This document shows positions 10,173 through 55,377 of a stretch of DNA of 64,000 nt, piece after piece. The stretch's first letter is position 1, and every line of letters starts with the position of its first letter. The stretch lies in contig LBUA01000001.1 of assembly GCA_000992345.1 (NCBI GenBank), positions 13,542 through 77,541 on the forward strand. The letters are read 5' to 3'. Under the pieces are notes generated by a model. That model had not been told where the DNA came from and did no database searches. It worked only from the letters and a program-made list of their open reading frames with translations. The position numbers and the translations under genes were made by a program. This DNA is from Parcubacteria group bacterium GW2011_GWD2_38_12 (GTDB taxonomy: Bacteria > Patescibacteriota > Minisyncoccia > GWC2-36-17).

Positions 10173-10549
10173 TTCAGCATATGTTGAAATTTCTTCTTGG
10201 AGGAATCATATTCGCAACTGGTATTTCATGGGCGTCTTTTGCGGCGATTGTATTTAGCGTTGACCCTAAAGATGTTGGGGGGGTGGGCATCGCGCTTTTT
10301 TATACTAGCTTATTTTTGGGGCTTTCCGGGGTTTTATTTTTATTGATGGCGTATTTGAGAAATAAAAAGCTCAGAATCAATGTAAAAGAGATGATTCATA
10401 ATATTTTTAGGCATTCTATTTTATTATCGGTATTTTTTGTCGGCTTGTTATTTTTGCACCAATCTAATATGCTGAATATTATTTCGGTTGTATGCTTGGC
10501 GGTGTTTACATTGGCTGTAGAAATATATTTTTTAAAAATGAATCAATAA
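10160..10549 (+). CDS. Small hypothetical membrane protein
   Basis: Four predicted TM helices. No recognisable motif. Confidence 0.35.
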   Translation: MCKIIQHMLKFLLGGIIFATGISWASFAAIVFSVDPKDVGGVGIALFYTSLFLGLSGVLFLLMAYLRNKKLRINVKEMIHNIFRHSILLSVFFVGLLFLHQSNMLNIISVVCLAVFTLAVEIYFLKMNQ

Positions 10550-10588
10550 AATCACGCAACATAAAACATCCGGCAAGAGGCAATATAT

Positions 10589-11644
10589 TTGAAACGCTTC
10601 ATGCTTCATATTTTGTGTTTCATGACTGTGATGGATTTACAGCAAAAATTAGAGAATATAAAGAAACTATTTAATCAAAAAATAAGAGATGTAAAAAATC
10701 TTGAAGTTTTGGAAAATTTGCGAGTTCAGTTTTTGGGTAGGAAAAGCGAGTTGGTGGAATTTTTAAAGGGGATTAAAAATTTAACCGAAGAAGAAAAAAG
10801 GAAATTTGGCCCCGTTGCCAATCAATTGAGGCGGGAGATGGAAAAATTAATGGAAGACGCAAAGAAATCGCTTAAAATGCGCGAGGTTGGTAAATTGATG
10901 GAAAAAGATCGTATTGATATTTCTGCTCCAGCCAAAAAAATATCTCAAGGACATTTACACCCATTAACTTTGATACAAAGGAAGATTGAGGATATTTTTC
11001 AGTCTATTGGTTTTGAAGTTGTTGAAGGACCAGAGATAGAGACGGAATACTATAATTTCAATGCCCTAAATATTCCGGCTGATCATCCAGCCAGAGAAAT
11101 GCAAGATACTTTCTGGCTCCAAACTCCAAACTCCAAACTCCAAACTCCAAAGTTACTAATGCGAACACAGACTTCATCTGTTCAGATTAGATACGCGGAA
11201 AATCATCAACCGCCGATTAGAATTATTTCCCCGGGCAGAGTTTTTAGGTTTGAAGCAACTGACCAAACTCACGATATTCAATTTCATCAAATTGAGGGAT
11301 TGATGATTGATAAAAATATTTCCCTTGCCAATCTAAAGGGAGTTTTGGAAATTTTATTTAAAAAGCTTTATGGCAAAGGAGTGGAGGTTCGTTTTAGGCC
11401 CAGTTACTTTCCCTTTGTGGAGCCGGGAGTGGAGGTAGATATGAAATTCAGAGGAAAGTGGATGGAAATTGCGGGCGCCGGAATGGTGCATCCGAAAGTT
11501 TTAAATACCATGAAAATAGATAGTCGCATTTGGCAGGGATTTGCTTTCGGTATGGGGCTTGAGAGATTGGCAATAATTAAATATGGGATTGATGATGTGA
11601 GACTGTTTTCATCGGGAGATTTGAGATTTCTGAAACAGTTTTAA
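10589..11644 (+). CDS. pheS: Phenylalanine--tRNA ligase alpha subunit, with an in-frame ACTCCAA heptamer-repeat insertion
   Basis: Class II aaRS motifs (FRPSYFPFVEPG, GAGMVHP, GMGLERL). The insert reads LQTPNSKLQTPK. Confidence 0.9.
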   Translation: MKRFMLHILCFMTVMDLQQKLENIKKLFNQKIRDVKNLEVLENLRVQFLGRKSELVEFLKGIKNLTEEEKRKFGPVANQLRREMEKLMEDAKKSLKMREVGKLMEKDRIDISAPAKKISQGHLHPLTLIQRKIEDIFQSIGFEVVEGPEIETEYYNFNALNIPADHPAREMQDTFWLQTPNSKLQTPKLLMRTQTSSVQIRYAENHQPPIRIISPGRVFRFEATDQTHDIQFHQIEGLMIDKNISLANLKGVLEILFKKLYGKGVEVRFRPSYFPFVEPGVEVDMKFRGKWMEIAGAGMVHPKVLNTMKIDSRIWQGFAFGMGLERLAIIKYGIDDVRLFSSGDLRFLKQF

Positions 11645-19862: not shown

Positions 19863-19936
19863 AATTTTGAATTTAGAATTTAACGGTATTTAAAACTTAT
19901 ATTCTAAATACTACATTTTATAATTCTTTCAAGAAC

Positions 19937-20944: not shown

Positions 20945-20954
20945 GATTTTTGTC

Positions 20955-21075
20955 CAAATTTTAGAGCTGAAAGCGAATAAAATTTGGTTACAAAATCTTA
21001 CCCTGTTAAATTCCCGCGAAGCGGGGGCGCCGAAGGCGCATTTAACAGGGTGTGCTGGGCTTTGCGATTGTTTAA
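20955..21075 (+). repeat. Family-1 structured repeat element, copy 1 (shorter variant), directly upstream of the GT4 gene
   Basis: Shares about 50 nt of 5' extension with copy 2 (ttttagagc.gaaagc.aataaaattt) and the nested hairpin core cttaccctgttaaat-[ccccgcGAAGcggggg]-[cgccGAAggcg]-catttaacaggg. Confidence 0.7.
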
Positions 21076-21092
21076 ATTTATTTTTATAAAAT

Positions 21093-32682: not shown

Positions 32683-32712
32683 GAGGCGGCCGAATGGCCG
32701 CCTTTTTTATTT
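32683..32712 (+). terminator. Rho-independent terminator after greA
   Basis: gaggcggccgaatggccgcctttttt. Confidence 0.8.
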
Positions 32713-32792
32713 TCTTGTCTAAATGTGTTTTTTTAGCTAAACTTAAAACATATAACATGAAATATATAACATGAAACACAAAGCATTTTTTA

Positions 32793-39365: not shown

Positions 39366-40541
39366 CTAATATTTTATCTTAATAAAATCATTATATAATT
39401 TTTCGTATTCTAAGACAATATTTTCAATAGCGTATTTTTGAGCCGCTTTTTGGGAGTTTTCCGACATTTTTTGTCTTAAGGTCGGGTTTTCTATTAATTT
39501 GGTTATCTCTTTTGAGAGTTCGATAAAGCTGTACCTTTCCGTTATGAGACCGGTTGTTCCATGTTCTACATATTCATCGATTGGGGATTTGGCGACAATT
39601 TGCGGCAGGCCTAGAGCCATTGCCTCAAATATCGGCAAGGGCTGATTTTCGGTATCTGATGCGGTAATAAAAATATCATTTGCAGCCACGGCATCGATGA
39701 AATTTTGGTCTATCAACATGCCAAAAAATATGACCTTGTCTCTAATGTTTAATCTTTTCGCGAATTTTTCAAGATTTTTTCTCTCCGGTCCATCGCCAAT
39801 TAAGGAAAGTTTTATTTTGGGATATTTTGGCGAAAGAAGCGCAAAAACTTTCAAGAGTTCATGGATTCTTTTCTCGTAGGTAATTTTTCCGAAATAAACT
39901 AAAGAAAATTCTGGCAAACCACAACGTTTTTTTAGTATATCTTTTTGCGCTGATGGTTTAAATTTAGAAATATCTATTGAGTTGGGAATAATAGAAACTG
40001 GAGCAGTAAGACCGTTTTTGATAAGATTCTCCGCAATGGTTTTTGACGGTACAATGACTATTTTACAGGAGTTATAAAATTTAACAATTTCTTTTTTAAG
40101 GAGGAATTCCGAAAGAAATGATCGACTTTTTATTATATGTTCTATATAGTTGGCATAAAAAGTATGGTGGGATCCGATTAGGGGAAGTTTTAAGATGCGA
40201 GCGACTTTTCGCGCTTCGTGGCCGGCGAAAAAGGGCGTATGAGCATGAATAACATCGGGATTTAATGAAAGAATATCCCGAAAGCCGGGGTTTATGGGAT
40301 GGAAGATATTTTTCAGATTAAAATATTCGTTTTTTGCTCTGTAGATTTCTATAAGTTGCGGTTTTTCAAAGTCGTTATCTATATTATTCTCTGATGATTG
40401 GTTTGTGAAAATAGAAACATTGTGGCCGTGATTTGCAAGTTCGTGGCTTAATGTTTGGAGAGAAACAGAAATACTGTTTATGTCCGGAAGAAAAGTGTCG
40501 GAAAAAAAGGAGATACGCATAAAATATGAAACATGTAACAT
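39366..40541 (-). CDS. Glycosyltransferase family 4
   Basis: GT-B fold. C-terminal region FITASDTENQPLPIFEAMALGLPQIV (E-x7-E). Confidence 0.8.
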   Translation of the reverse strand: MLHVSYFMRISFFSDTFLPDINSISVSLQTLSHELANHGHNVSIFTNQSSENNIDNDFEKPQLIEIYRAKNEYFNLKNIFHPINPGFRDILSLNPDVIHAHTPFFAGHEARKVARILKLPLIGSHHTFYANYIEHIIKSRSFLSEFLLKKEIVKFYNSCKIVIVPSKTIAENLIKNGLTAPVSIIPNSIDISKFKPSAQKDILKKRCGLPEFSLVYFGKITYEKRIHELLKVFALLSPKYPKIKLSLIGDGPERKNLEKFAKRLNIRDKVIFFGMLIDQNFIDAVAANDIFITASDTENQPLPIFEAMALGLPQIVAKSPIDEYVEHGTTGLITERYSFIELSKEITKLIENPTLRQKMSENSQKAAQKYAIENIVLEYEKLYNDFIKIKY

Positions 40542-40582
40542 GAAATATGTAATCCGCCGTGGCGGACTTCATGATTCATGAG

Positions 40583-42442
40583 TTAATCGAGTCGGTAGAC
40601 GAAGATTGAGTGTCCAATCGTTGTAATCGGTTTTTTATCTTTGAGCCAGGAGTAGGTATCTTCCGGCTTCATAATAAATCCAGGAGCTGGTTTTCCATGA
40701 GCATTTTGAAGTAATGTGGCAGAAATAGCAAAATAGCCATGATATGGACCCTTTGATGATTGCCATTGGTCATATTTTTCACCAAGATAATATCTGGGTG
40801 ATCCGCCTCCGAAATATTCAACCCCAATTTTATTTATTTTATTTTTTTCAACATATTGAGTAAGCCGTTTTAAATCCTGTCCCCAGTCAAGATTGGAATC
40901 CACTACATATCTGTATCCATTTTTAGGTCCGCCGATCAATTCATTGAAATATGCTAAAAAATACGGGAAAGTGAAAATCGTGGCGATAGCGTACCAAAAA
41001 AGTAGGATTGCGATTAGCGCATAACGCGAGAAAATTTTCAGATATGAACCAATAACATTTCCGATTGCCTTGAATGGGAATTTAGATAGATCAATAATTT
41101 CATTTTTTAATATTGCCCATTTATTTATTTCTGCGCTAATTAGAACATAGACAAAGGGGAATGTCGGAATAATATGCCTGACTCCGATATTAAGATTGCT
41201 ACGGAGCGTGACAAGCCAATACAGTATAATAAATCCCAGCATCGCTACCTCGTGATAATTATTTTTTGCCCAGTGAATTAGAGCCGTAAACATTGATGGT
41301 TCTTCGTGGCGGCGCTTGGTATTGGCAATGAATAATTTTATGAATCCATAAATTGCAATTAGTATCATTATATGTTTAGCCAGTGGTTCTTTTATCAAAT
41401 AAACAATCAGGAAATAGCTTTTCCATCCTGCGGATGACACCTCGCCCAGGTAGTAGGTTGTATTGCCTCCGGTGGCGCGTTGAGTCACCATCAAAAACCC
41501 ATGACCGTATTGGGCAAATGGCCTTAAGATTGGTTTGTCAGACATCCAGATAATCGGATCTGCAAATAAGCGATTCCCGAATGAACCCAAATTGAATATG
41601 GTATCCGCTTTTTGACGCTCGGCGGGATAGTTCCATGTATGCCACTGATAAATCGGCCAGACAACGAAGATAAATCCAGCAGATATAATAGATACGCTCA
41701 TTACACCGTGCTTGAAAGAGCGCCAAATTTTTTCTTTGAATGGAGCGTCTGTTTGGATATATCCGTAGAGTAGGGCGAGTAATCCTAAAAATGGAATTAA
41801 TAAAAATGTGGAAAATTTCGCGAGTATCGCAAAGCCGAAAGCTAAAGAAGCAAGAATAAAGAATTTGGGAGTTTTATTGCGCAGAAATTTAACGAAATAA
41901 TATATAGAAATAAATATACCGGCAGTCGCTCCGATATCGGTGGTGACAAATCTTCCGTGGGCGAGTATTGTTGGAGAAAATACATAAAGGGTCAGTGCCA
42001 TCAAAGCCGTTTTATCTCCAAATTCCTCAAGAGTCCATTTGAAAATATAAAATCCAAGAAGTAGCATTATGAGTATCGGACCAATGCGTCCCCAGAAAAT
42101 TATTTTATCCGGATTATTTCCCGATTCATATAAAAATTGCGATCCCAAAACCCACTGGTCGTTTATATTTTCTTTCCACGCTTTGCCGTCGTTAGGAAAT
42201 TTAAGATCCATAAATTGCAGGGGAAGAGCGGCAATATCTTTTATAAGCGGAGGATGCTCTGGATTTAAGCGCATATCTTTGTATTTAAGATAGGAATATC
42301 CGGCAGCGATATGGGGAGATTCGTCCATAATAACAGAGTCGTTCCACATGCTGGCAACGGCCAAAATAAGCATTATGCCGAGTAATGCGCAAGCAAGGAT
42401 GTTGGTGAATTTGCGTTCAAACATATTTAAATTATGAATCAT
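40583..42442 (-). CDS. Polytopic membrane glycosyltransferase, GT-C superfamily (PMT/ArnT-like)
   Basis: N-terminal DESPHIAAGYSY...NPEHPPL loop-1 motif typical of GT39/GT83-like enzymes, 10 or more TM helices, and a C-terminal soluble domain. Confidence 0.5.
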   Translation of the reverse strand: MIHNLNMFERKFTNILACALLGIMLILAVASMWNDSVIMDESPHIAAGYSYLKYKDMRLNPEHPPLIKDIAALPLQFMDLKFPNDGKAWKENINDQWVLGSQFLYESGNNPDKIIFWGRIGPILIMLLLGFYIFKWTLEEFGDKTALMALTLYVFSPTILAHGRFVTTDIGATAGIFISIYYFVKFLRNKTPKFFILASLAFGFAILAKFSTFLLIPFLGLLALLYGYIQTDAPFKEKIWRSFKHGVMSVSIISAGFIFVVWPIYQWHTWNYPAERQKADTIFNLGSFGNRLFADPIIWMSDKPILRPFAQYGHGFLMVTQRATGGNTTYYLGEVSSAGWKSYFLIVYLIKEPLAKHIMILIAIYGFIKLFIANTKRRHEEPSMFTALIHWAKNNYHEVAMLGFIILYWLVTLRSNLNIGVRHIIPTFPFVYVLISAEINKWAILKNEIIDLSKFPFKAIGNVIGSYLKIFSRYALIAILLFWYAIATIFTFPYFLAYFNELIGGPKNGYRYVVDSNLDWGQDLKRLTQYVEKNKINKIGVEYFGGGSPRYYLGEKYDQWQSSKGPYHGYFAISATLLQNAHGKPAPGFIMKPEDTYSWLKDKKPITTIGHSIFVYRLD

Positions 42443-42521
42443 AAAACATGAATCAATTTTTAAAAATACGAATTTTAATTATTGAATGTATGTCGCGTGC
42501 TTCATGTTGTATGTTGCGTGA

Positions 42522-44192
42522 TTATTTAATTATATAATTAAATCCTTCCCCCTTTTCTAATTTTCCGGGAGCCAGAGATTGCAATTGTTTTGTTAAATTA
42601 TCATCATACTCCATTAATATAATAACATACGATTTATCATCATAAAAATTTCGCTTTTTTATATCGTTCGGCAATAAATAAATTATATTCTTTTCAAGTT
42701 GGTTGGTTTTTTTATAGCTGTTTGTTATAAACATTGTTGTCTGACTGGACATGGGAATGTTATTGACCAGTGCGCCCCCGCTATTTATTATTACGTATTT
42801 TTTTATATCCCCGGGCAGATTATTGATAAATCGGCCGATTTTAACGTAATTGTCGGAGAAAGCTCCTTTTATATTGGGATTATTAGCATAATTGACAAAG
42901 TATTTTCGATATCCGCTAAATGCCACGTAAAATAAGATAATAAAATATAGTGGCATAATTAATTTCTTGTTGGAATATAGGAAGATTTTCTTTTTAAAAA
43001 AATTATAAAGTGTAAAAGTTCCAAGGCCGGCAAGTATGAATGTTGGAGGGATGGCGCCGATGGATCTTAAAGCATGCGGCAGGCCTTCGGTGCTCAAGAT
43101 TGACGGAGCAAGCATAGCGGAAAACCACGCAAGTAAAAATATGTGTTGCAAGGGGATGGGATTGTGCGGGAATTTTTTCAGTAATTGGTAGCAGAATTTC
43201 AGGAATTTTTTTAAACAGATGAAAATACCGATTAAGAAGAAAATGCCGACAGGCCAGAAAAGCAATGGTGAACCCGCAAAGTTATGCCGCCAATTCCAGT
43301 CGCCAATAAAATTAAATTGCGCAAGTGTCAAAATAGAGCTTTTTATTACTTCTGTTATTGGATTCTCCGAAGCGAAAATCGAAACCTGTCCGGCTCTGCC
43401 GATGAAATCATCCGGATGAATGTAGAAATAATAGAATATCGGCAATGCCGCAAGAAGGGCAAAAGAGCCGTAAATAACGATGTTATAGAAGAATTCTTTT
43501 AATAATTCTTTTTTGTTTGCGCTATTTTCAATATCGCCGGCGCCATTTGTTCTTATTATTTCAATTAATTTAAAAATCAAAACTGCAATTACCACAATTG
43601 GAACGATACGAAAAGCGATATAGGTGTGAAAACCAAGACCCATGAATATGCCAGCCCAAATAAAATTAATATTTTTTTTAGTTCTAAATCCTTTAAATAA
43701 AAAATAAAAAGAAAAAGTCGTGAGAAACGGCAACATAATGGCGCGAAAACCAATACGGGAGAAGTTTGTATGCCAGAAGCTCACAGCGAGAAAGAAAGAT
43801 GATAAAAGAGCAATAATTTTTGAATTATGAAGTATGAATTTTGAATTATGGAGATTATTTTCTGGCTCCAATTCTTGATTCATAATTCTTGATTCATAAT
43901 TCTTTTTGCAAAAAAGCTCTTTGGTCAATAAATACACTCCTAAAACTGTTAATACGCCAAACAATGCGCTTACTAGTCGCAATGCCCACGGCTCATTGCC
44001 GAATGTCGCGACAGATAGCGCCTGGATATTTATAAAAAGTCCTTCGCGACCGTTATTTTCCGGATAAAATATCTTAAAATTTCCAGTTGAGAGCGCTTCC
44101 AGCGCGTTGTTGCCGTTCATAGCTTCGTCCGGGTAAAGTCCGGGCGGCATCTGGGCTATATTGTAGAAACGGAAAAAAGTCGCTATAATCAA
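42522..44192 (-). CDS. Polytopic membrane glycosyltransferase, GT-C superfamily (ArnT/PMT-like), second paralogue
   Basis: N-terminal RFYNIAQMPPGLYPDEAMNG (DE motif in the first extracytoplasmic loop), and more than 10 TM helices. Confidence 0.55.
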   Translation of the reverse strand: MIIATFFRFYNIAQMPPGLYPDEAMNGNNALEALSTGNFKIFYPENNGREGLFINIQALSVATFGNEPWALRLVSALFGVLTVLGVYLLTKELFCKKNYESRIMNQELEPENNLHNSKFILHNSKIIALLSSFFLAVSFWHTNFSRIGFRAIMLPFLTTFSFYFLFKGFRTKKNINFIWAGIFMGLGFHTYIAFRIVPIVVIAVLIFKLIEIIRTNGAGDIENSANKKELLKEFFYNIVIYGSFALLAALPIFYYFYIHPDDFIGRAGQVSIFASENPITEVIKSSILTLAQFNFIGDWNWRHNFAGSPLLFWPVGIFFLIGIFICLKKFLKFCYQLLKKFPHNPIPLQHIFLLAWFSAMLAPSILSTEGLPHALRSIGAIPPTFILAGLGTFTLYNFFKKKIFLYSNKKLIMPLYFIILFYVAFSGYRKYFVNYANNPNIKGAFSDNYVKIGRFINNLPGDIKKYVIINSGGALVNNIPMSSQTTMFITNSYKKTNQLEKNIIYLLPNDIKKRNFYDDKSYVIILMEYDDNLTKQLQSLAPGKLEKGEGFNYIIK

Positions 44193-44284
44193 GATGGCAA
44201 TTAGATAGATTTTATATTTATGAGTTTTGATAAATTGTATATTTAAGTGATCAAGCGATCTTATAAATTATATCAAATTAATCC

Positions 44285-44773
44285 GTGGAAAACCATAAAG
44301 ATAAAAAGAAGGAGATTCCAGCTTTTATGGAAACAAATTCAGTGCAAAGTTTAGAGGCGCAACCAAAAACTCAGCTTCACGAAGAAATCGCCGAACTTGA
44401 AAAAAATTTAGAAGAGAAAAAGCGTTTGGCGGGAATATCAGGCGTTGAGATTCCTTACGAAAAAGAGGTTTTTAAGGATGTTATTAAAGAGCATATCTCT
44501 CAAAAAAGAGAGCAGATTTTGTCTTCTCTACCGCCTTCACAAGCGCAGGCACAACAGGCACAAGTGGCAGATGACGCGCAAAAATTAAAAGAATTGACCG
44601 AGCAGAAACAGCTTGAGGAGTTAATAGGTATTGCTCATAAAAAAAGTCCGATTGCCGCGGCGCATATTGCCGAACATATGAAAAATCCCAGATTACTTGA
44701 TAGCTTTCATGATTATTTGACTGATCAATTGTATGATTATTTAGTAAAAACCAGAAAATTAAGAGAACTTTAA
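44285..44773 (+). CDS. Hypothetical coiled-coil protein
   Basis: ORF only. Gln/Ala-rich low-complexity centre. Confidence 0.35.
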   Translation: MENHKDKKKEIPAFMETNSVQSLEAQPKTQLHEEIAELEKNLEEKKRLAGISGVEIPYEKEVFKDVIKEHISQKREQILSSLPPSQAQAQQAQVADDAQKLKELTEQKQLEELIGIAHKKSPIAAAHIAEHMKNPRLLDSFHDYLTDQLYDYLVKTRKLREL

Positions 44774-44852
44774 GTTAGCTATTCCAGTGGTTCAGCTATT
44801 TTAGCGGTTTAGCTTCGGCTATACTGCTATACCGCCATACCGCTTACCGCCC

Positions 44853-47303
44853 TTGATTTTAAATCTAAATTTAGACCCCAGAATATTGATTATTATTATT
44901 TTATTTGTAGCGCTGACCATTTCAATAATTGTCGCGCTAATTTTTATTTCTCGCATGAAAGAAGAGGGGAGATTGGAGCGGTCATTGAATATGGTTTTAT
45001 TTTTAGTGACATTGCCGAGATTCAAGCCGGAAAAAGAGGGCGAAAAACGTGAAGAGAAAAATTTTATAGCGATATCGGAACAGTTTTTTACCGGTTTATC
45101 GGAGATAACAGACAAGGGATTTTTGAAAAATTTTATTTATGGCCAGCCGTACTTGGTACTGGAGATGGCTGTGTCGTCAAATGCCAATGAAATAGTTTTT
45201 TATATTGCTGTCCCGAGAAAATTTTCCGAAATTCTAGAAAGACAAATTCATAGTTTTTTCCCCGGCGCTTTTTATGAGAGAGTAAAAGACTACAACCCCT
45301 TTGTTTCGGGTGGATATACTGCCGCATCTTATGTTTCTCTTGCCAAGCATTATGCAATGCCGGTTCGCACATATCAAAAAATGGAAGTTGATCCATTAAG
45401 CGCGTTCGCTAATTCGCTCTCAAAGTTGCAGGAAAAGGGAGAAGGCGGAGCGATACAACTATTAATTTCTCCTGCAAAAAATTGGCAAAAATTCAGTTCG
45501 GAAGTGATAAGGCAAATGCAAAAAGGATTGGAATTTTCTAGAGCTATCAAAAGGGCGCAGGGCGGCGTTTGGGAAACTATCAATGAAATATTTATCAAGA
45601 AAAAAAAAGAGAAAGAGCCAAAATTATTGACGCCAATCCAAGAAGAGGAAATAAAAATTATCAGCGAAAAGGCGCAAAAAGTCGGTTTTGCGGTAAATAT
45701 TAATCTTGTGGCTTCGGCGCAAACGAAAGCCAGAGCAGAAGAAATTTTATCGCAAATAGAGAAAAGTTTTACCCAATTTTCTTCACCTAATCTTAATTCT
45801 TTCAAAATTAATCGTTTGAGCAGTAAGGTGGCTGAAGATATAATTTATGATTTTTCCTTTCGGATTTTTCACATACACAGCAAAATGATTTTAAATACAG
45901 AAGAATTGGCGAGTATATATCATTTCCCCACTCCGTATTTGGAAACGCCCAAGATAAGATATCTGACCTTCAAAAAAGCTCCTCCGCCGGTAACTTTACC
46001 AGAGGAAGGGGTGATGCTGGGAATAAATATTTATCGCGGCATTGAGACTACCGTGAAGATGACGCGCGATGACAGGAGAAGACATTTGTATGTTATCGGT
46101 CAAACCGGCACGGGAAAAACATTTTTATTGCAAAATATGATTCGCCAAGATATGGAAAACGGTGACGGATGCTGTTTCATCGATCCGCACGGTGAGGCGA
46201 TTGAATACATTTTGGGATTAGTGCCGAAAAATAGGGCGGATGATGTCGTGGTTTTTGACCCAGCCGACCTTGAAAGGCCTTTAGCGTTGAATTTTCTGGA
46301 GTATGACCCTGCCCATCCGGAACAGAAAACTTTCATTACCAATGAACTGCTTGTGATATTGGATCGACTTTATAATCTTAAAGAAACCGGCGGGCCAATG
46401 TTTGAAAGATATTTAAGAAATACTTTGGGGCTTTTGATGGATTTTCCGGAAAAAGGATTTACTTTGATGGAGATACCAAAAATTTTTGCTGATGAAGATT
46501 TCAGGAATAATCTTTTGGCGAATTGCAAAGATATTTTAGTAAAAGAATTTTGGGAAAAAGAGGCGCTTAAAGTGAAGGGTGAAGGATCGTTGGCTGAGTT
46601 GACCCCATATATCACCAGTAAATTTGGCATATTTATAAATAATGATTATATGAGGCCCATTATCGGCCAATCAAAAAGCACTTTGAATTTTAGCGATATT
46701 ATAAATAACAAAAAGATATTATTGATAAATCTTTCTAAGGGGAAAATAGGCGATATAAATTCGCAGTTGCTCGGTATGATAGTTGTCGGTAAATTAACTC
46801 AAGCGGCATTGGCGCGTGTTGATATGCCCCAAGAACAAAGAAAAGATTTTTATTTATACATTGACGAGTTTCAAAATTACACCACTCCGTCGATTTCCAC
46901 TATTTTATCCGAGGCGAGAAAATATCGGCTATGTCTTAATTTGGCGCATCAATTTATTGGTCAATTGCCTGAAGATATTTCAAAAGCTGTTTTTGGCAAT
47001 GTCGGATCTCTGGCGCTTTTTCGGGTTGGACCGGAAGACGCGGAATTTTTGACGCAATTTTTAAAGCCGGTATTTTCCGAATATGATTTGATAAATTTGG
47101 ATAATCGGAACGCATTGGTCAAGTTGTTGGTAAATGGCGCAGTGACTCAGTCATTTAACATTACCACGACAATGACCGATATTCCGTCGCCCGATTTGGA
47201 GATTACCTCTGCCATCAAACAGCTTTCTCGCTTGAAATTTGGGCGCGATAAAGTGATAATAGAAGAAGAGATAAGAACTCGCTATAAACAATCTGACAAT
47301 TAA
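44853..47303 (+). CDS. Membrane-anchored P-loop ATPase of the TraD/TraG/VirD4 (type IV coupling protein)-like family
   Basis: N-terminal TM helix, then HLYVIGQTGTGKTFLL Walker A followed by CFIDPHGE, then Walker B YIDEFQNY and SEARKYRLCLNLAHQFIGQL, all as in T4CP/TrwB-type ATPases. Confidence 0.55.
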   Translation: MILNLNLDPRILIIIILFVALTISIIVALIFISRMKEEGRLERSLNMVLFLVTLPRFKPEKEGEKREEKNFIAISEQFFTGLSEITDKGFLKNFIYGQPYLVLEMAVSSNANEIVFYIAVPRKFSEILERQIHSFFPGAFYERVKDYNPFVSGGYTAASYVSLAKHYAMPVRTYQKMEVDPLSAFANSLSKLQEKGEGGAIQLLISPAKNWQKFSSEVIRQMQKGLEFSRAIKRAQGGVWETINEIFIKKKKEKEPKLLTPIQEEEIKIISEKAQKVGFAVNINLVASAQTKARAEEILSQIEKSFTQFSSPNLNSFKINRLSSKVAEDIIYDFSFRIFHIHSKMILNTEELASIYHFPTPYLETPKIRYLTFKKAPPPVTLPEEGVMLGINIYRGIETTVKMTRDDRRRHLYVIGQTGTGKTFLLQNMIRQDMENGDGCCFIDPHGEAIEYILGLVPKNRADDVVVFDPADLERPLALNFLEYDPAHPEQKTFITNELLVILDRLYNLKETGGPMFERYLRNTLGLLMDFPEKGFTLMEIPKIFADEDFRNNLLANCKDILVKEFWEKEALKVKGEGSLAELTPYITSKFGIFINNDYMRPIIGQSKSTLNFSDIINNKKILLINLSKGKIGDINSQLLGMIVVGKLTQAALARVDMPQEQRKDFYLYIDEFQNYTTPSISTILSEARKYRLCLNLAHQFIGQLPEDISKAVFGNVGSLALFRVGPEDAEFLTQFLKPVFSEYDLINLDNRNALVKLLVNGAVTQSFNITTTMTDIPSPDLEITSAIKQLSRLKFGRDKVIIEEEIRTRYKQSDN

Positions 47304-47306
47304 CAA

Positions 47307-48023
47307 ATGACGATTGACTATTTGGTCAAATGTCAAAGGTTAAAAGTCAAGAAGTTTGCAAAACATATGGAACAACCATTTCAGAGGGCTCAAGCAACGG
47401 TCGCGGTGGAATCAGCTTCTCCTGTGATTAAGTTTAGAAAAGGGGACGCAATAGCTTCGGTGGCGTTGGGGCTTATCATCGGATTTTTTACGCCGTTTAT
47501 TTTAAATAATATCGGACGGACTTTGCCTCTTCAGGATTTTTATTTTGTAATCTTCCCTATTGTGGCGCTGATGGGAATGTGGATTGTTTTTTTGATTGCC
47601 GCGAGAGTTCCGGTTTTGGTGCAGATTACGAAATTTGGCGCAATTGGCGCAGCTAATACCGTAATTGATTTTGGGATATTGAATTTTCTGTCTTTCAAAT
47701 TCCAGATTTTTAGCGGAGGAAGTCTGACTATATTGAATATTATTTCTTTTAGTGTCGCCGTCATAAATAGTTATTTTTGGAACAAGCACTGGACTTTTAA
47801 ATCCGAGCAAAATAATTCCAGCAAACAATTTATAGAGTTTATTGTTGTGTCCGTTATAGGAGTATTAATAAATACTGGAATAGTTTATTTAATGACGACT
47901 TTGGTTATTCCTTTTGCTGGTATTTCCGAGCAGATTTGGTTAAATATCGGCAAATTGATGGCAACATTTATTTCTCTTGCATGGAACTTCGCTGGTTATA
48001 AATTTATAGTGTTTAGAAAATAA
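47307..48023 (+). CDS. GtrA-family polyprenol-phosphate-sugar flippase-like membrane protein with an N-terminal extension
   Basis: C-terminal about 130 aa with 4 TM helices and GtrA hallmarks (KFGAIGAANTVIDFGILNFL ... FWNKHWTF ... WNFAGYKFIVFRK). Confidence 0.65.
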   Translation: MTIDYLVKCQRLKVKKFAKHMEQPFQRAQATVAVESASPVIKFRKGDAIASVALGLIIGFFTPFILNNIGRTLPLQDFYFVIFPIVALMGMWIVFLIAARVPVLVQITKFGAIGAANTVIDFGILNFLSFKFQIFSGGSLTILNIISFSVAVINSYFWNKHWTFKSEQNNSSKQFIEFIVVSVIGVLINTGIVYLMTTLVIPFAGISEQIWLNIGKLMATFISLAWNFAGYKFIVFRK

Positions 48024-48034
48024 GGGCTTTATTA

Positions 48035-48198
48035 AAATTTTAGAGCAGAAAGCAAATAAAATTTAGATAGTAAATCTTAACCTTGTTAAATCCCCGCGGA
48101 GCTGGGGCGCCAAAGGCGCATTTAACAGGGTACTCGATTTTGAAATAAAATTTTGCGCACTCCGCAAAGCTTCGTTTCAAAATTTCGATAAAATCGGC
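48035..48198 (+). repeat. Family-1 structured repeat element, copy 2 (full length); its last three bases are the ATG of the downstream gene
   Basis: About 85% identical to 53725-53871. Nested hairpins: ccttgttaaat/atttaacaggg enclosing ccccgc-gga-gctgggg and gcgcc-aaa-ggcgc, then ttttgaaat...[tttgcg-cactc-cgcaaa]...cgtttcaaaa, then ..aaaatcggcATG. Confidence 0.75.
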
Positions 48199-48684
48199 AT
48201 GTATGAGATTTATAAATTTTTACATGGAATTGGAATTTTAATGACTGTTGGCGTGATTACCGCGTCGCTTATTTACGGTTGGTATAAAAAATTATTCCCA
48301 AATAATAAATTATTAACCAAAATCCAATTTCCATATAAGTGGATATCTCCGTCGGTGAAAATTGGCCTTGTTGTTTTAATTATTTCCGGCCTTGGGATGT
48401 ATGCGGAGAGAGCGGAACAATTCAATAGTTCGGCGGTTTTTTGGATAAAAATGGGTTTTGTTTTGGCGCTTGTAATAAATAATATTTGGTTAAACAGCAT
48501 TTTAAAACCAAAAGGCAAAAAGATATTTTCCGATCCAGTTCTTGCCAATTCGCCGGAAGCCTTAAAACTTAAAAAGACATTTAATTTTGCAGAAAATCTG
48601 TCTTTATTTTTATGGTTCACAACCATGATTGTAAGTTTTCTTTTGCCTGAGGGCCGTGAAGAGCGCGGAGGAAGAGAATTTTAA
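48199..48684 (+). CDS. Hypothetical membrane protein (4 TM)
   Basis: ORF with TM helices. The start codon is supplied by the upstream repeat element. Confidence 0.4.
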   Translation: MYEIYKFLHGIGILMTVGVITASLIYGWYKKLFPNNKLLTKIQFPYKWISPSVKIGLVVLIISGLGMYAERAEQFNSSAVFWIKMGFVLALVINNIWLNSILKPKGKKIFSDPVLANSPEALKLKKTFNFAENLSLFLWFTTMIVSFLLPEGREERGGREF

Positions 48685-48766
48685 TTATAGATTTATAACA
48701 CACAGAGCATGCAGCATGAAGTCCGCCGCGGCGGATTCATGTTTCATGTCTCATGTTTTATGTTGC

Positions 48767-49882
48767 ATGAGCTTAGTTTTATATCGTAAATATCGTCCTA
48801 AAACTTTTGCCGAGATTAGCGGGCAAAAGCATATTGTTGAAACCTTGGTCAATGCCATAAAGAGCGGGCGAGTAGCGCATGCCTATTTATTTTGCGGTCC
48901 GCGCGGCACAGGCAAGACGACTATGGCGCGTTTACTTGCCAAAGCATTAAATTGCGAAAAACTTTTAACTTTTAACTTTAAACTTTCAACTGACCCAATA
49001 GAGCCGTGTAATAAATGTTTGAGTTGTCAGTCAATCAACGATGGCAATGCTCTGGATATCATTGAAATAGACGCGGCTTCCAATAGGGGTATTAATGAAA
49101 TTCGCGATTTGCGCGAAGGAGTAAAATTTTCTCCAGCCGCGCTTAAATACAAAGTATTTATTATTGACGAGGTACATATGTTAACCAAAGAAGCGTTCAA
49201 TGCTCTGCTTAAAACACTGGAAGAGCCGCCCCAGCACGCCATTTTTATTTTGGCCACAACCGAAGCGAATAAAATACCAGCGACGATTTTATCGCGTTGT
49301 CAGAGATTTGATTTTAGAAAATTATCGGTCAATGAGATTATAGAAAGGCTGAATGGAATTATAAAAAAGGAGGGGATAGATTGCGGCGATGATGTTGTAA
49401 GCTTTATTGCGACAATCAGCGATGGCGGACTTCGCGATGCTGAGTCATTGCTTGGCCAAATTATTAGCGTATCGAGCGGGAAAATAGATTTGGAAACGGT
49501 TCAGGATGTTTTAGGGATTGCCGACATGAGAGATGTATATGCATTTGTTGATTTGCTTATTAATAATAATCATCAGGAAATTTTTAAATTTATCAATAAT
49601 CTTTTTAATCAGGGAAAAGATATGGCGGAGTTTATGAGATCATCTTCTAATTATTTAAGAAAAATGATGATTTGTCAGATTGACAATGCGCTTGTTGCCA
49701 CCGTAGCCAAAGATATGACACGCGAACAACAGGTAAATTTGTGCTCCCAGGCGCAAAAATTTGAAAATGCCAAGATTCATAAAATAGTGGCCCGACTAGT
49801 GGATGCTGAAAATCAAATTAAAAAATCATTCTCTCCTATTATTCCCATTGAGCTTGCTATGATTGATATTTTAGGGATATAA
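48767..49882 (+). CDS. dnaX: DNA polymerase III subunit gamma/tau (short, gamma-like), with an in-frame TTAACTT (reverse AAAGTTA) heptamer insert
   Basis: YRPKTFAEISGQKHIV, Walker A GPRGTGKTT, Zn module CNKCLSCQ, DEVHML and SRCQRF. The insert reads LLTFNFKLSTD between the Walker A and the zinc module. Confidence 0.9.
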   Translation: MSLVLYRKYRPKTFAEISGQKHIVETLVNAIKSGRVAHAYLFCGPRGTGKTTMARLLAKALNCEKLLTFNFKLSTDPIEPCNKCLSCQSINDGNALDIIEIDAASNRGINEIRDLREGVKFSPAALKYKVFIIDEVHMLTKEAFNALLKTLEEPPQHAIFILATTEANKIPATILSRCQRFDFRKLSVNEIIERLNGIIKKEGIDCGDDVVSFIATISDGGLRDAESLLGQIISVSSGKIDLETVQDVLGIADMRDVYAFVDLLINNNHQEIFKFINNLFNQGKDMAEFMRSSSNYLRKMMICQIDNALVATVAKDMTREQQVNLCSQAQKFENAKIHKIVARLVDAENQIKKSFSPIIPIELAMIDILGI

Positions 49883-49884
49883 TT

Positions 49885-49912
49885 TTCTAGCTTCTAGCTT
49901 CTAGCTTCTAGC
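49885..49912. repeat. TTCTAGC heptamer x4 tandem repeat immediately upstream of tRNA-Gln
   Basis: ttctagcttctagcttctagcttctagc. Confidence 0.85.
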
Positions 49913-49916
49913 TTTT

Positions 49917-49987
49917 TGCGGGATCGTCTAATGGTAGGACTCCGCCCTTTGAAGGCGGCTATCTTGGTTCGAATCCAGGTCCCGCAG
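49917..49987 (+). tRNA. tRNA-Gln (anticodon UUG), CCA not encoded
   Basis: Manual cloverleaf: acceptor TGCGGGA/TCCCGCA (U1-A72, G73 discriminator as in bacterial tRNA-Gln), D-arm GTCT-AATGGTA-GGAC, anticodon arm CCGCC-CTTTGAA-GGCGG, T-arm CTTGG-TTCGAAT-CCAGG. Confidence 0.85.
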
Positions 49988-50049
49988 CACGAGTCAGTGC
50001 GTTATTGAGAGACCGAGAAGGCTATATTTTAAGTTATTAATTATATCTA

Positions 50050-50484
50050 ATGCAAAATTACAAAGACAAAATAATTGAATTTATAAGATTATTTTTGTTA
50101 TCGTTGTTTATAATATTTGTTTTATTAATTTTACCAATACTAATAGAAACTATTTTAAGATTATATTTGGAAAGTAGAACAATTGGCGTATTAATAACAT
50201 CTATTTATTTAATTACTTTTCTATATATTTTATATTATAAAAAAAGAGACAAGAGTAAGACATTTCTAGAAAATTTTTATTTGTTTACAAATTCCATAAG
50301 AAAATCTATAAAAGAAATAATTAGTTTTATTACAAAAATTCCTCACTTTTTTAAATTAACAGGAAATTCTATTATCAAAATAGTAGGTTACATTTTTGTT
50401 GCGGCATTGATAATAATCCCAATATTTATAGTCATAATAATTATGTTAGCCATTATAAAATGGTCTTTTCAAATAGTGTTTTAG
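50050..50484 (+). CDS. Hypothetical membrane protein (AT-rich islet downstream of tRNA-Gln)
   Basis: ORF with 4 TM helices. Very AT-rich codon usage compared with neighbouring housekeeping genes. Confidence 0.35.
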   Translation: MQNYKDKIIEFIRLFLLSLFIIFVLLILPILIETILRLYLESRTIGVLITSIYLITFLYILYYKKRDKSKTFLENFYLFTNSIRKSIKEIISFITKIPHFFKLTGNSIIKIVGYIFVAALIIIPIFIVIIIMLAIIKWSFQIVF

Positions 50485-50508
50485 TTTTTAATCTATTAAA
50501 ATAAGATT

Positions 50509-51111
50509 TTGTTAGTAAATAATTGTTTAGATAAAATATTTATGGAAGATCAAATAATTAAAATATCTGAAGATATAACTTCTATTGCTGATAGCACTAA
50601 TCAAATTCAATCTTATATTAAAATCATCTTACAACGCCATTGGTGGGATACTCAATGGTTTTCTTCGTTATTTGGTGTTATTTTGGGCACTATAATAACA
50701 TTATCGATTGGATGGATGAAAGATTATTTACAATGGAGAAAGAAAATTTTATTGAGTTGGTATAAAAAATTGATAAAAGGCCCAAATTTAGATGATCTAA
50801 TATATCAAGCGCTTCATATTAGTTATGCTTATGGTGGAAAAGATACAAATGACAAATCCTTATCAGAAAAAGTTTTAATTGAGTTTCGTAAAAAATATAA
50901 GCATTGGAATCTTCCATTATTATCAAGACTTCGGTTTTTATTTATAAAATGTGAGAAGTTTATTAAAAAATTACCAAATAAAAATAATGCACAGTATGAA
51001 GAATTTAAGAAAAGTGATGAATATAAAATATTAAATAAAATTTTTAATAAAATTATTTTTATTTCCGAAAAGAGCACCGGAGAAAATCGATGGACATTAA
51101 TTAATGATTAA
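50509..51111 (+). CDS. Hypothetical protein (AT-rich islet)
   Basis: ORF only. One central TM helix. Confidence 0.35.
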   Translation: MLVNNCLDKIFMEDQIIKISEDITSIADSTNQIQSYIKIILQRHWWDTQWFSSLFGVILGTIITLSIGWMKDYLQWRKKILLSWYKKLIKGPNLDDLIYQALHISYAYGGKDTNDKSLSEKVLIEFRKKYKHWNLPLLSRLRFLFIKCEKFIKKLPNKNNAQYEEFKKSDEYKILNKIFNKIIFISEKSTGENRWTLIND

Positions 51112-51265
51112 AATAATTAAATATTTAATTTATAGCTACCACCGCGACCCGACCGAGACGGGTTATTGTGGTATAATAAAAACAGTCAAAAAAGCTCTCA
51201 ACGGTCTCGCTAGTTTTGGTTCTAGACCGGAGTAGCTAGCCAACAAAGATAAGTTGGAAAGACTG

Positions 51266-53724: not shown

Positions 53725-53868
53725 AGCACAAATTTTAGAAACAAAACCTTACCCTGTTAAATCCCCGCGAAGCGGGGGTGCGAAAGCGCATTTAACAGGG
53801 TGCTCATTTTTGAAACGAAATTTTGCGCACTCCGCAAAGCTCCGTTTCAAAATTTTGACAAAATCGGC
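53725..53868 (+). repeat. Family-1 structured repeat element, copy 3 (full length); it ends at the ATG (53869) that most likely starts the ABC-F gene
   Basis: cttaccctgttaaat-[ccccgcGAAGcggggg]-[tgcgAAAGcgca]-tttaacaggg ... ttttgaaacg-aaat-[tttgcg-cactc-cgcaaa]-gctc-cgtttcaaaa-ttttgacaaaatcggcATG. Confidence 0.75.
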
Positions 53869-55377
53869 ATGTCGCAAAATGCAAAGCCCCGTAGCGAACG
53901 AAGTTCTGCTGCAGGAGAAGTTATAATCAGATTTGATGAAGTGTCTTTTGAACACGGACCCCAAAAACCCATTCTTGAAGAGGTGGGTTTTTCGGTGCGT
54001 AGAGGAATGAAAGTCACGCTGATGGGGCAAAATGGCGCCGGAAAAAGCACTATTTTTCAACTCATTACCGGAGCGGCAAAACCCGAATCAGGCGCGGTGC
54101 ATATCGGGTCGGATATTATTGTCGCTATTTCGCGGCAAGTAATTCCTCGCGATCAGTTGGATTTAACAGTGCGGGAATTTTTTGAGAAATGTTTTGATAA
54201 AAAAGTTTACGATATAGATCCTAAAATTGATGAGGTGTTGGAAGTGGTGAATTTAAAAGGCCACGAAAAAATGCACAAAAGGATTATTAAGTCATTTTCC
54301 GGCGGTCAGCAGGCGCGGCTTCTTTTGGCGTCGGCGCTCATTCAAGATCCCGATGTATTGCTTCTTGATGAGCCGACCAACAATTTGGATAAAGCCGGTA
54401 TCGCGCATCTGACAAATTTTTTAGTTAATTATAAGAAGACTTGTATTGTTATTTCTCACGACGCGGATTTTCTCAACGCTTTCACGCAGGGCGTTTTGTA
54501 TCTTGATATATTTACTCGCAAAATAGAACAATATGTCGGTAATTATTTTGATGTGGTGAAACAAATCTCTGTTCGAATAGAAAAAGAAAATAGAAAGAAT
54601 GCGTTATTAGCAAAAGAGATTCAGGAGAATAAAGACAAGGCAAACTTTTTTGCGCACAAAGGCGGACGTATGAGGTTGCTCGCTAAACGTATGCGTGAGA
54701 AAGCCGAGGAGATGGAAGAAGAAAAAGTTGATGTGCGAAAAGAAGATAAACCCATCAGGCCGTTTATTATTCCTTTCCAAGAGGATTTGATAGGGGAGAT
54801 TATAAATATCTCATCTTTCACGACGATGAAAAATCATCAGCCAGCAGAACACAAAGCCAAAATTTCAATGAAGAAAAATCAGCACTTGCTCTTATCCGGC
54901 CCCAATGGCATCGGCAAAAGCACATTACTAAAATCCATCGCCAAAGGTACTGTAGGGGGCGTGGCGATTGCCCGAGGTGTCCGCGTCGGGTATTATTGCC
55001 AAGACTTTTCTACGCTTAATTTTGATGAAACTGTTTATGAATCGCTCGTGTCGGCGATGGAGAAAGCGACCGGAAAAAAAGACGATGAATTCATCCGTGC
55101 TATCGCTGCGAGTTTTATGATTAGAGGTGATATGGTTTATTCTAAAATCGGCAGTTTGTCCGAAGGGCAAAAGGGGCTCGTTGCTTTTGCGCGACTGGTA
55201 ATTCAAAAACCCGGCCTTTTGATACTTGATGAGCCAACCAATCACATCAATTTTCGCCATTTACCAGTCATCGCTGGAGCGCTCAACAAATACGACGGCG
55301 CGATGATTCTCGTCAGCCATGTCCCCGAATTCGTCTCCCAAATCCGCATTGATGAGATATTGGATTTAGAGAAATAG
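53869..55377 (+). CDS. ABC-F family ATPase (tandem ABC domains, no TMD; ribosome-associated EttA/Uup-like). Start placed at the ATG supplied by the repeat; the annotated ORF extends upstream to 53800 through the repeat.
   Basis: Two Walker A motifs (GQNGAGKST; GPNGIGKST), two signatures (FSGGQQARLLLASAL; LSEGQKGLVAFARL) and an inter-domain linker with a charged arm. Confidence 0.85.
   Translation: MSQNAKPRSERSSAAGEVIIRFDEVSFEHGPQKPILEEVGFSVRRGMKVTLMGQNGAGKSTIFQLITGAAKPESGAVHIGSDIIVAISRQVIPRDQLDLTVREFFEKCFDKKVYDIDPKIDEVLEVVNLKGHEKMHKRIIKSFSGGQQARLLLASALIQDPDVLLLDEPTNNLDKAGIAHLTNFLVNYKKTCIVISHDADFLNAFTQGVLYLDIFTRKIEQYVGNYFDVVKQISVRIEKENRKNALLAKEIQENKDKANFFAHKGGRMRLLAKRMREKAEEMEEEKVDVRKEDKPIRPFIIPFQEDLIGEIINISSFTTMKNHQPAEHKAKISMKKNQHLLLSGPNGIGKSTLLKSIAKGTVGGVAIARGVRVGYYCQDFSTLNFDETVYESLVSAMEKATGKKDDEFIRAIAASFMIRGDMVYSKIGSLSEGQKGLVAFARLVIQKPGLLILDEPTNHINFRHLPVIAGALNKYDGAMILVSHVPEFVSQIRIDEILDLEK

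Follow-up and report, generated by a model that had tools for sequence, protein, structure and literature searches.

The window analysed here is the whole 64,000-nucleotide (nt) stretch of contig LBUA01000001.1 from Parcubacteria group bacterium GW2011_GWD2_38_12, in which CATGAA...TTCATG features recur upstream of dnaX and several other genes. These features are intercistronic heptanucleotide-array palindromes, and they make up one family of clade-specific, approximately 30-nt period-7 arrays that occupy the spacers between co-directional genes and, in frame, the loops of proteins. The original prediction, made from the sequence alone, had interpreted them as a shared palindromic operator implying a common DNA-binding regulator, or alternatively as another small repeat family. 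A classical operator of a regulon is not supported. We consider it somewhat better than an even chance that the features are slippage-prone heptanucleotide-array palindromes in intercistronic spacers which may act in cis, and the feature draws its interest more from what it reveals about heptamer arrays across the lineage than from any signal of a regulon.

Structure of the CATG elements

All of the sequences quoted in the original prediction were found in the window at their expected positions, and the near-perfect palindrome that it described upstream of dnaX corresponds to 48715-48741 (catgaaG-TCCGCCGCGGCGGA-ttcatg). A common layout was recognised at five loci in the window, those of pheS, lysS, a GT4 gene, a PMT_2 (GT-C) gene and dnaX: an A-rich array of ACATGAA type is followed by a centre and then by a T-rich array of TTCATGT type, which stops at or within the downstream start codon. 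The centre of the dnaX and GT4 elements is a 14-nt palindrome, TCCGCC(G/A)CGGCGGA; it is AT-rich in the lysS and PMT_2 elements, and the GC palindrome is lacking in both of these and in the pheS element. The polarity of the arms, A-rich 5' and T-rich 3', was constant at all eight CATG loci, counting three further loci in a second genome (contig L123, described below).

At dnaX, the 5' A-rich arm (48708..48721, + strand) comprises two heptamers, CATGCAG CATGAAG, with the last G bulged in the hairpin. The core (48722..48735) is the perfect 14-nt palindrome TCCGCCGCGGCGGA; on its 5' side it is 37 nt away from the stop of the upstream open reading frame (ORF; stop at 48684), and on its 3' side 31 nt separate it from the dnaX ATG. 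The 3' T-rich arm (48736..48769, + strand) reads TTCATGT TTCATGT CTCATGT TTTATGT TGCATG, which Tandem Repeats Finder (TRF) reported over the same positions as 4.9 copies of TTCATGT with 81% matches. The start ATG (48767-48769), fixed by the N-termini of close orthologues (MSLVLYRKYRP), lies within the last unit of this arm.

The GT4 element is found on the minus strand, and Pfam matches confirmed the identity of its gene. Its 5' arm (40567..40582, − strand; CTCATGAA TCATGAAG, with two CATGAA units) starts 1 nt past the stop of the upstream PMT_2 gene (40583-40585). The core (40553..40566) is TCCGCCGTGGCGGA on the + strand and TCCGCCACGGCGGA as read on the gene strand; the strain contig L121 has another central base, which gives a centre of CCGCGG. 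The 3' T-rich arm (40518..40552, − strand) consists of TTACATA TTTCATG TTACATG TTTCATA TTTT, or approximately 4.5 TTCATGT-type units, followed by the ATG at 40520-40518; TRF reported CATGAAA x4.6 at 40518-40549. This element had been described as a mirror variant of the dnaX palindrome. The sequence is indeed present, but the mirror reading does not stand, because on the gene strand the order of its parts equals that of the dnaX element.

The CATGAAA/TTTCATG clusters noted before lysS and between the two GT-C genes proved to be degenerate tandem heptamer arrays of period 7. The lysS element lies on the + strand and comprises a 5' arm of approximately 4.5 copies of ACATATA/ACATGAA (32745-32778), an AT-rich centre without a GC core (32779-32804) and a 3' arm of CCATGTT TCATATT TCATGTT (32805-32827); the gene starts at ATG 32808, as chosen by the gene callers, or at TTG 32835, and a canonical greA terminator (32683-32704) lies upstream of the element. 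The PMT_2 element (42425..42518, − strand) has a 5' arm beginning CGCAACA TACAACA TGAAG... (42518-42484), an AT-rich centre (42483-42453) and a 3' arm of TTCATGT TTTATGA TTCATAA TTTAAAT (42452-42425), followed by the ATG at 42424-42422, with an alternative ATG at 42442. The fifth locus, that of pheS (10553..10624, + strand), was missed by the original prediction and was found with a profile from the core-containing copies. It reads CACGCAA CATAAAA CAT, a 27-nt centre, and CTTCATG CTTCATA TTTTGTG TTTCATG; the upstream stop is at 10547-10549, and the pheS ATG (10622, also the start chosen by the gene callers) falls inside the last heptamer.

Counts of the motifs support a non-random occurrence. 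The pattern CATGAA-N10-25-TTCATG has two matches in the window against 0.14 expected, and the 14-mer core has two exact matches, the control figure of 0.28 applying to matches with up to two mismatches. Of the CATGAA/TTCATG hexamers in the window, the 11 that are intergenic are all confined to the four loci named in the original prediction (335 nt in total), and CATG itself is under-represented across the window (124 observed, ~210 expected). Between lysS and GT4, the CATG arms share 84% identity across 31 nt, a 14-nt super-period included. The heptamer arrays mislead gene callers and can also be mistaken for operators: dnaX, GT4, lysS and PMT_2 are often called with false N-terminal extensions that run through the stop-free arrays, as in the 388-aa DnaX P0001.

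Period-7 arrays across the window

Period-7 arrays were counted with TRF (at least 3 copies) and with a strict self-match scan across lags, together with Markov shuffles. TRF returned approximately 23 such arrays in the 64 kb, 18 of them with 4.0-5.4 copies, equivalent to 28-38 nt. The strict scan found 12 arrays at lag 7 and none at lags 3-6, 8 or 10-13, nor any in the Markov shuffles, and the excess in run length was confined to lag 7. At least 15 different heptamer units are present (e.g., TTCTAGC, TTAACAA, GTCAATC, ATTCGCT, AGAATTT), with recurring units limited to CATGAAA (five loci), AAAGTTA (three coding arrays), CTCCAAA (two) and GTCAA-type units.

Many of the spacers between co-directional genes are made of an inverted pair of arrays. 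The entire 63-nt spacer before a GtrA-like gene (47304..47366, + strand; gene start 47367) consists of (nTGACnn)x4 followed by (GTCAAnn)x4, and similar pairs lie before greA, where the arms are only partly complementary, and at 19854-19920. An array lies close to the start codon in five of the seven longer spacers, and arrays end 0-11 nt before start codons. The spacer between dnaX (stop 49882) and tRNA-Gln (49917) holds TTCTAGC x4.3 (49885..49914, + strand). A spacer without heptamers, at 44777-44850 before a DUF87/TrwB-like gene, carries period-17 and period-8 arrays (GCTATACC x4.2); its counterpart in the orthologous locus of the relative L002 is a TTYATGY heptamer array adjoining the start.

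In-frame arrays are present in pheS, pheT, dnaX and other genes. That inside the dnaX coding sequence (48960..48991, + strand) is an ACTTTTA-type array of 4.6 copies encoding KLLTFNFKLST in the loop of the zinc module, and comparison with orthologues indicates that it adds 7 residues, i.e., 21 nt or three units. Five other in-frame heptamer arrays were noted at 8008-8045, 11117-11151, 12288-12324, 12736-12767 and 25785-25817, the hosts being a 230-aa ORF, pheS (LQTPNSKLQTPK), pheT (two arrays) and an M50 protease. All five are built from two units only, AAAGTTA and CTCCAAA or its reverse complement, and where the unit of a coding array contains TAA, point changes abolish the in-frame stop. The minus-strand PMT_2 gene (42522-44192) contains a full inverted pair in frame at 43821-43902 (GAATTAT/GAATCAA ... 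CATAATT/CAAAATT), whose translation, approximately KNYESRIMNQELEPENNLHNSKFILHNSK, falls between two predicted transmembrane segments. By inserting 7-residue blocks into essential proteins (DnaX, PheS, PheT and a PMT_2 glycosyltransferase), the same process would naturally generate variation in loops.

Relatives, strains and array turnover

Exact protein matches point to Parcubacteria group bacterium GW2011_GWD2_38_12 and Candidatus Azambacteria RIFCSPLOWO2_01_FULL_37_9, both from aquifer metagenomes, as the source of the window. The dnaX loci of four relatives with 74-89% DnaX identity to the window protein (L001, 74%; L002, 76%; L004, 89%; and L003) were used for orthologue comparison. More distant loci came from Parcubacteria with 55% DnaX identity (L125-L127), in which 59 kb around dnaX were scanned. 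A different, Parcubacteria-like genome (L120/L123; L123 has 38% GC) was covered over 14.7 kb. Strain-level comparison made use of a Joint Genome Institute (JGI) contig, L124, which spans window positions 43709-51152 (7.4 kb), and of further near-identical contigs (L121, L128-L143), which span 2.5-43 kb of the window and include most of the other arrays. These further contigs come largely from one aquifer and are therefore not independent samples.

Heptamer arrays were present in all four relatives and in L123. Strict arrays were absent from the 59 kb around dnaX of L125-L127, and 850 kb of unrelated loci contained two lag-7 arrays, no more than at neighbouring lags, with no period-7 excess. 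The phenomenon is specific to the clade (Candidatus Azambacteria). The original prediction had proposed checking that the palindrome is conserved upstream of orthologous genes. It was absent upstream of dnaX in each of the four relatives, where the spacers instead contain inverted arrays of unrelated heptamers in L002, with (GTAAnTn)x4 then (TTACTAA)x5-ATG, and in L004, with (TTAGnTT)x4, a stretch of approximately 60 nt and then (CCTARAA)x4, about ten TTCATGT-type units in L001, and no array beside the start codon in L003. Comparison of these spacers shows that the architecture upstream of dnaX is kept among relatives and the sequence is not.

The same pattern extends to the two other arrays around dnaX. 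On the tRNA-Gln side, the window and L001 have TTCTAGC x4.3 and L002 has TTTTAGC x4.3, all four units having switched together. The 35-nt array in the zinc-module loop is built from ACTTTTA in the window, GTTGTCA in L002 and GCTGATA in L003. Unit identity in this loop is 0.67-0.71 within an array compared with 0.43-0.54 for position-matched units between orthologues, and because units are more alike within an array than at the same site of orthologues, the arrays are either homogenised by concerted evolution or re-created time and again, with site and size unchanged. The loop region itself (48945-48995, dnaX codons ~60-76, between LAKALNC and EPCNKC) is an insertion hot spot for repeat DNA: the same loop holds, all in frame, a longer insert with TCCGCC-AGTT-GGCGGA in L004, a degenerate form in L001 and a perfect hairpin with a 13-bp stem in L127.

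Over the 7.4 kb shared by L124 and the window, the sole difference is that L124 lacks one heptamer (TCATGTC, 48744-48750) of the dnaX array. Change by a whole 7-nt unit was thus seen directly at this one site, and we infer it for the other arrays. Two indels of another kind were noted near pheS among the near-identical contigs: a hot spot at ~11666, between pheS and the next gene, with +26, +5 or -30 nt, and a 34-nt deletion early in pheS (10665-10698) in one NCBI assembly (L136).

The GC core as a dispersed palindrome family

The TCCGCCRYGGCGGA core has two copies in the window and three in L123. A scan of metagenome sequences with the core recovered the strain-variant GT4 locus (loop CCGCGG) and the different genome L120/L123. 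In L123, the first copy lies between dnaK and the next ORF (~2827-2854) and is reduced to the minimal form, CATGAAA-TCCGCCGCGGCGGA-TTTCATG, which is perfectly palindromic over its full 28 nt; the second lies between the ORF next to dnaK and dnaJ, and the third between dnaB and recR. The window and L123 copies adjoin non-orthologous genes, yet the core is identical in four of the five copies across the two genomes and varies only at its centre. All five copies are situated between co-directional genes, with 16-37 nt separating the core from the preceding stop codon and 18-32 nt from the start that follows, and a core-like TCCGCC-AGTT-GGCGGA is also found inside the dnaX coding insertion of L004.

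The GC-core form is therefore a small, dispersed palindrome family resembling repetitive extragenic palindromic (REP) sequences and common to at least two genomes. Its dispersal at non-orthologous genes, together with the 84% identity of the lysS and GT4 arms, bears out the small repeat family that the original prediction had offered as its alternative. No transposase or REP-associated tyrosine transposase (RAYT) was present in the annotation of the 64-kb window.

Two further repeats came to light alongside the core. In L123, grpE and dnaK are each immediately preceded by the same ~45-nt sequence (4780-4830 and 5380-5440), which includes (AAATTAG)x3.4 as read on the gene strand; in this hrcA-grpE-dnaK-orf-dnaJ cluster, it takes the position expected for the controlling inverted repeat of chaperone expression (CIRCE) operator. 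A broad contig scan with GAAGTCCGCCNNGGCGGATT proved too permissive, its matches being mostly an unrelated Ignavibacteria repeat plus scattered GC-rich genomes. That repeat (GTCATTTCGAAGTCCGCCGCGGCGGATTCGACTGAGAAATC..., among L005-L119, e.g., L005 2335-2420) is of high copy number, and its hairpin is identical to the dnaX core over 21 nt, the bulged G included; it has no match in Rfam, including a scan by E-value. Hairpins resembling it are also present in Verrucomicrobia (L042, L115), and a Peregrinibacteria contig (L068) has two. The likeness to the dnaX core could reflect either convergence or a shared element.

RNA folding and translation context

Folding of the elements as RNA gave z-scores against shuffled sequences of -4.35 for dnaX, -3.15 for GT4 and -3.56 for lysS; the PMT_2 element (-0.68) did not stand out from shuffles. 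Among the other spacers folded from the window and relatives, 7 of 11 had z-scores of -2.1 to -3.7. At the gathering threshold, Rfam 15 identified only tRNA-Gln in the window, with nothing at E<1 around 48600-48850. Attenuation by a leader peptide or T-box was considered for pheS and lysS and rejected, as there is no Rfam T-box match and no Phe- or Lys-rich upstream ORF in the arms.

Shine-Dalgarno-like motifs are rare upstream of nearly all genes in the window, and the arrays were therefore rejected as specific replacements for Shine-Dalgarno sites. A scan for promoter consensus sequences gave 92 matches against 66 expected, a comparison that the AT-rich DNA makes uninformative. Pairs of -35/-10 boxes picked out by eye inside the arms were also dismissed, given that they stand at the wrong distance from the ATG for a leaderless transcript and that the loss of a 7-nt unit would break any such promoter. 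The parS consensus TGTTTCACGTGAAACA had no match in the window at up to three mismatches, and the resemblance of TGTTTCATG to parS was rejected accordingly, the arms being like half-sites only superficially.

Interpretation and rival explanations

Under the preferred reading of slippage-prone array palindromes acting in cis, the arrays would arise through 7-nt replication slippage, and palindrome-templated copying would keep the two arms complementary. The resulting element could then act in cis, either on the polycistronic transcript or on the DNA. As RNA, it would present a stem-loop right after the upstream stop and then, up to the start codon, a leader that is rich in U, contains AUG and lacks a Shine-Dalgarno sequence. 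The stem-loop could attenuate or stabilise the upstream message, or affect read-through, and the leader may set the initiation context of the downstream gene, such that the gain or loss of units would provide a crude tuning knob.

Several observations weigh against this reading. We infer all of its functional steps from sequence, and a single unit-step polymorphism was seen, in the dnaX array of L124. The contigs L121 and L128-L143 show substitutions and a few unrelated indels, with no further change in array copy number, and general hypervariability of the arrays was rejected on this basis; the arrays can slip by whole units, yet they are not generally hypervariable. In a comparison of sense and antisense folding across 14 spacers, seven favoured each strand and the summed difference favoured antisense. 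Because there is no sense-strand bias, there is no sign of selection on the mRNA structure itself as against the symmetry of the DNA or its mutational origin, and selection on an mRNA hairpin is not supported. Local slippage alone also leaves unexplained the recurrence of CATGAAA, AAAGTTA and CTCCAAA at unrelated loci, the identity of the core in two genomes, and a copy number that peaks at 4-5 instead of decaying geometrically. Finally, the absence of arrays from Parcubacteria with 55% DnaX identity is compatible with neutrality.

The shared operator of the original prediction, in which a dimeric regulator that co-regulates the downstream genes would bind the GC palindrome, either alone or together with the CATG half-sites, is very unlikely. 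It can draw on a perfect 14-nt palindrome at two window and three L123 loci that varies at the centre only, on core-to-start distances that are alike at dnaX and GT4 (31 and 32 nt), and on the presence of dnaX, recR and dnaJ among the targets. However, the palindrome is not conserved upstream of dnaX in L001-L004, with L002 and L004 carrying unrelated heptamers there, and it is missing from the lysS, PMT_2 and pheS elements; the original prediction had itself named a lack of conservation in relatives as telling against an operator, and a conserved operator is refuted because the architecture persists at dnaX when the sequence does not. The core moreover comes right after a co-directional stop and the 3' arm reaches the start codon, leaving little room for a promoter, a core-like TCCGCC-N4-GGCGGA lies within the dnaX coding sequence of L004, and the downstream genes are heterogeneous and lack functional coherence. 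The window annotation includes no classical regulator gene, and the CATG elements are one of many heptamer-array families, with many analogous elements built from other sequences. As most of these analogous elements lack CATG, a role of the CATG clusters as methylation-dependent switches is also less likely. Still less likely is an intrinsic terminator or attenuator, in which the core hairpin and the U-rich 3' arm would terminate or pause upstream transcription in either direction. The position of all five core copies 16-37 nt past a stop codon, the GC-rich stem followed by UUCAUGUUU, and the arrangement of an A-rich arm 5' and a T-rich arm 3', which is that of a bidirectional terminator, are as such a model would have it, and a terminator scan weakly marked 48720-48737 (tail CATGTTTCAT). 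Yet the same scan left the GT4 copy unflagged, canonical terminators in this DNA carry a run of at least six T (32683-32704, 38308-38280) that the CATG elements do not have, the next gene begins approximately 31 nt downstream without a recognisable promoter, and in the elements that lack a core the AU stems are weak and the loops large.

A third possibility, which we rate as quite unlikely, is that the UUCAUGU arrays at start codons are a multi-site platform for a post-transcriptional regulator or chaperone that binds RNA or single-stranded DNA, such as a cold shock protein (Csp), S1 or a CsrA-type factor, a role that has been proposed for the TAACTGA repeats of Beggiatoaceae. The rarity of Shine-Dalgarno motifs, the array ends 0-11 nt before start codons, and the occurrence of the CATGAAA unit at five window loci and at other genes in L001, L002 and L123 are consistent with such a platform, and CspB has been reported on heptamer direct repeats with one protein per heptamer (PMC4679880). 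Most arrays, though, have other units and could not be covered by a single sequence-specific factor, arrays are also found in coding regions, that at 49885-49914 adjoins a tRNA gene and not a start codon, and the complementary A-rich arm would sequester the sites. The elements might instead lack any cis function and be selfish or mutational debris from heptamer slippage and quasi-palindrome correction, possibly with a mobile palindrome similar to REP or to miniature inverted-repeat transposable elements (MITEs), tolerated only in spacers and permissive protein loops. This neutral account, which is unlikely in our view, accommodates the in-frame arrays and hairpin inserts in essential proteins, the unbiased folding of the two strands, the lack of arrays in Parcubacteria with 55% DnaX identity and the wholesale replacement of arrays at one site between relatives; it accords poorly with the retention of an array at the same site and length across relatives with 74-89% DnaX identity, with the copy number peak at 4-5, with the uniform arm polarity (8/8 CATG loci) and with the proximity of an array to the start codon in 5/7 longer spacers. 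Lastly, though we think it unlikely, the arrays may be the work of an active process that reads length and periodicity, not sequence, and that builds, homogenises and replaces ~30-35-nt arrays, often as pairs that are inverted and complementary, both at the 5' ends of genes and in permissive protein loops, thereby providing tunable leader hairpins genome-wide (contingency-like spacers). If this were true, orthologous sites would keep the size of their array as its unit sequence is swapped wholesale, and tunable leader hairpins would serve an organism that has hardly any classical regulators or Shine-Dalgarno sites.

Comparison with known repeat systems

The REP sequences and bacterial interspersed mosaic elements (BIMEs) of enterobacteria and pseudomonads are imperfect palindromes of ~28-40 nt that lie between the co-directional genes of operons, are conserved as families within a genome, and act as mRNA-stabilising or attenuating stem-loops. 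The GC-core elements are similarly short palindromes dispersed in co-directional spacers, at a density of two copies per 64-kb window and three per 14.7 kb of L123. They differ from REP and BIME elements in that no GTAG/CTAC head was seen, no RAYT occurs in the window, and their arms consist of tandem heptamers that vary in number. The in-frame insertions known from Rickettsia protein genes, the Rickettsia palindromic elements (RPEs), are 100-150 bp in length and belong to a mobile family whose sequence is conserved. Palindromic or repeat DNA in frame is likewise seen here in the DnaX zinc-module loop, the PMT_2 loop, PheS and PheT, although these inserts are 21-90 nt long, periodic, and of a different sequence at each site.

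Heptamers are the most over-represented class of long simple sequence repeats (SSRs) in many bacteria, for which slippage related to the polymerase footprint has been hypothesised (Mrazek et al., as cited in PMC4679880 and PMC4692102). The closest description is that of the TAACTGA repeats of marine Beggiatoaceae, some Cyanobacteria and Bacteroidetes, which in Beggiatoaceae end 1 nt before start codons (MacGregor, 2015; PMC4679880). As in the window, they are tandem 7-nt units (2-6 copies), mostly intergenic and oriented toward and close to start codons, in regions without ribosome-binding sites and upstream of genes that show no functional pattern and include essential ones (PMC4679880). A single heptamer dominates there, however, set sizes fall from 2 upward and inverted pairs make up 1 of 170 sets (PMC4679880), whereas the arrays described here have many units, a peak at 4-5 copies, hairpin-forming inverted pairs, some GC-palindrome centres, and in-frame representatives in essential genes.

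Similar parallels hold for the Xanthomonas GGGAATC repeats and the short tandemly repeated repetitive (STRR) sequences of Nostoc and Calothrix (GGGGAYT), which also show a lineage-specific, intergenic period-7 excess with occasional inverted pairs, and extensive variation in length and sequence at the same intergenic site between close relatives (Rehm, 2015; PMC4692102); long SSRs of Xanthomonas and Nostoc are also credited to Mrazek (2007), as cited in PMC4692102. Those heptamers are rich in G and could form G-quadruplexes, each genome uses a single consensus unit, and the arrays are often long (PMC4692102), in contrast to the AT-rich, diverse units, ~30-nt length, start-codon-adjacent position and additional coding locations seen here. 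Dominance of one or a few units, as in STRR or TAACTGA, was not found, with at least 15 units in 64 kb. Heptamers 5' of genes are further known from the promoters of Haemophilus influenzae hmw1A/hmw2A (7-bp repeats) and Vibrio cholerae ctxAB (TTTTGAT), where strain-variable copy number modulates expression in a phase-variable manner (PMC8262952; bioRxiv 10.1101/2021.05.14.444153). These arrays are perfect, often long, and placed in promoters of surface or virulence genes, unlike the imperfect arrays of 4-5 units that precede housekeeping genes in the window and for which one polymorphism was seen.

No description of heptamer or tandem repeats in the candidate phyla radiation (CPR), Patescibacteria or Azambacteria was found in the literature. 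CPR bacteria have tiny genomes with few recognisable regulators, and this genome is almost without Shine-Dalgarno sites. How such organisms set expression within long strings of co-directional genes is a question on which the arrays bear, and slippage-prone heptamer spacers are a testable candidate for cis-encoded expression tuning.

Other repeats and neighbouring genes

Three copies of a structured repeat of approximately 75-190 nt were noted at 20927-21090, 48006-48202 and 53730-53872. Its core, CCTGTTAAATCCCCGCGAAGCGGGG-GCGCCGAAGGCGC-ATTTAACAGGG, comprises a closing helix around two GC hairpins and has no Rfam match. The copies at 48006-48202 and 53730-53872 extend to an end of GGCATGT, which in the former is the start (48199) of the 161-aa ORF upstream of dnaX. 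The repeat may be an unannotated leader or small RNA.

A Pif1-like helicase gene with a C-terminal HTH_40 domain is located at 58298-59977. Pif1 helicases resolve hairpins and G-quadruplexes, and this one may be relevant in a genome rich in hairpin-forming repeats.

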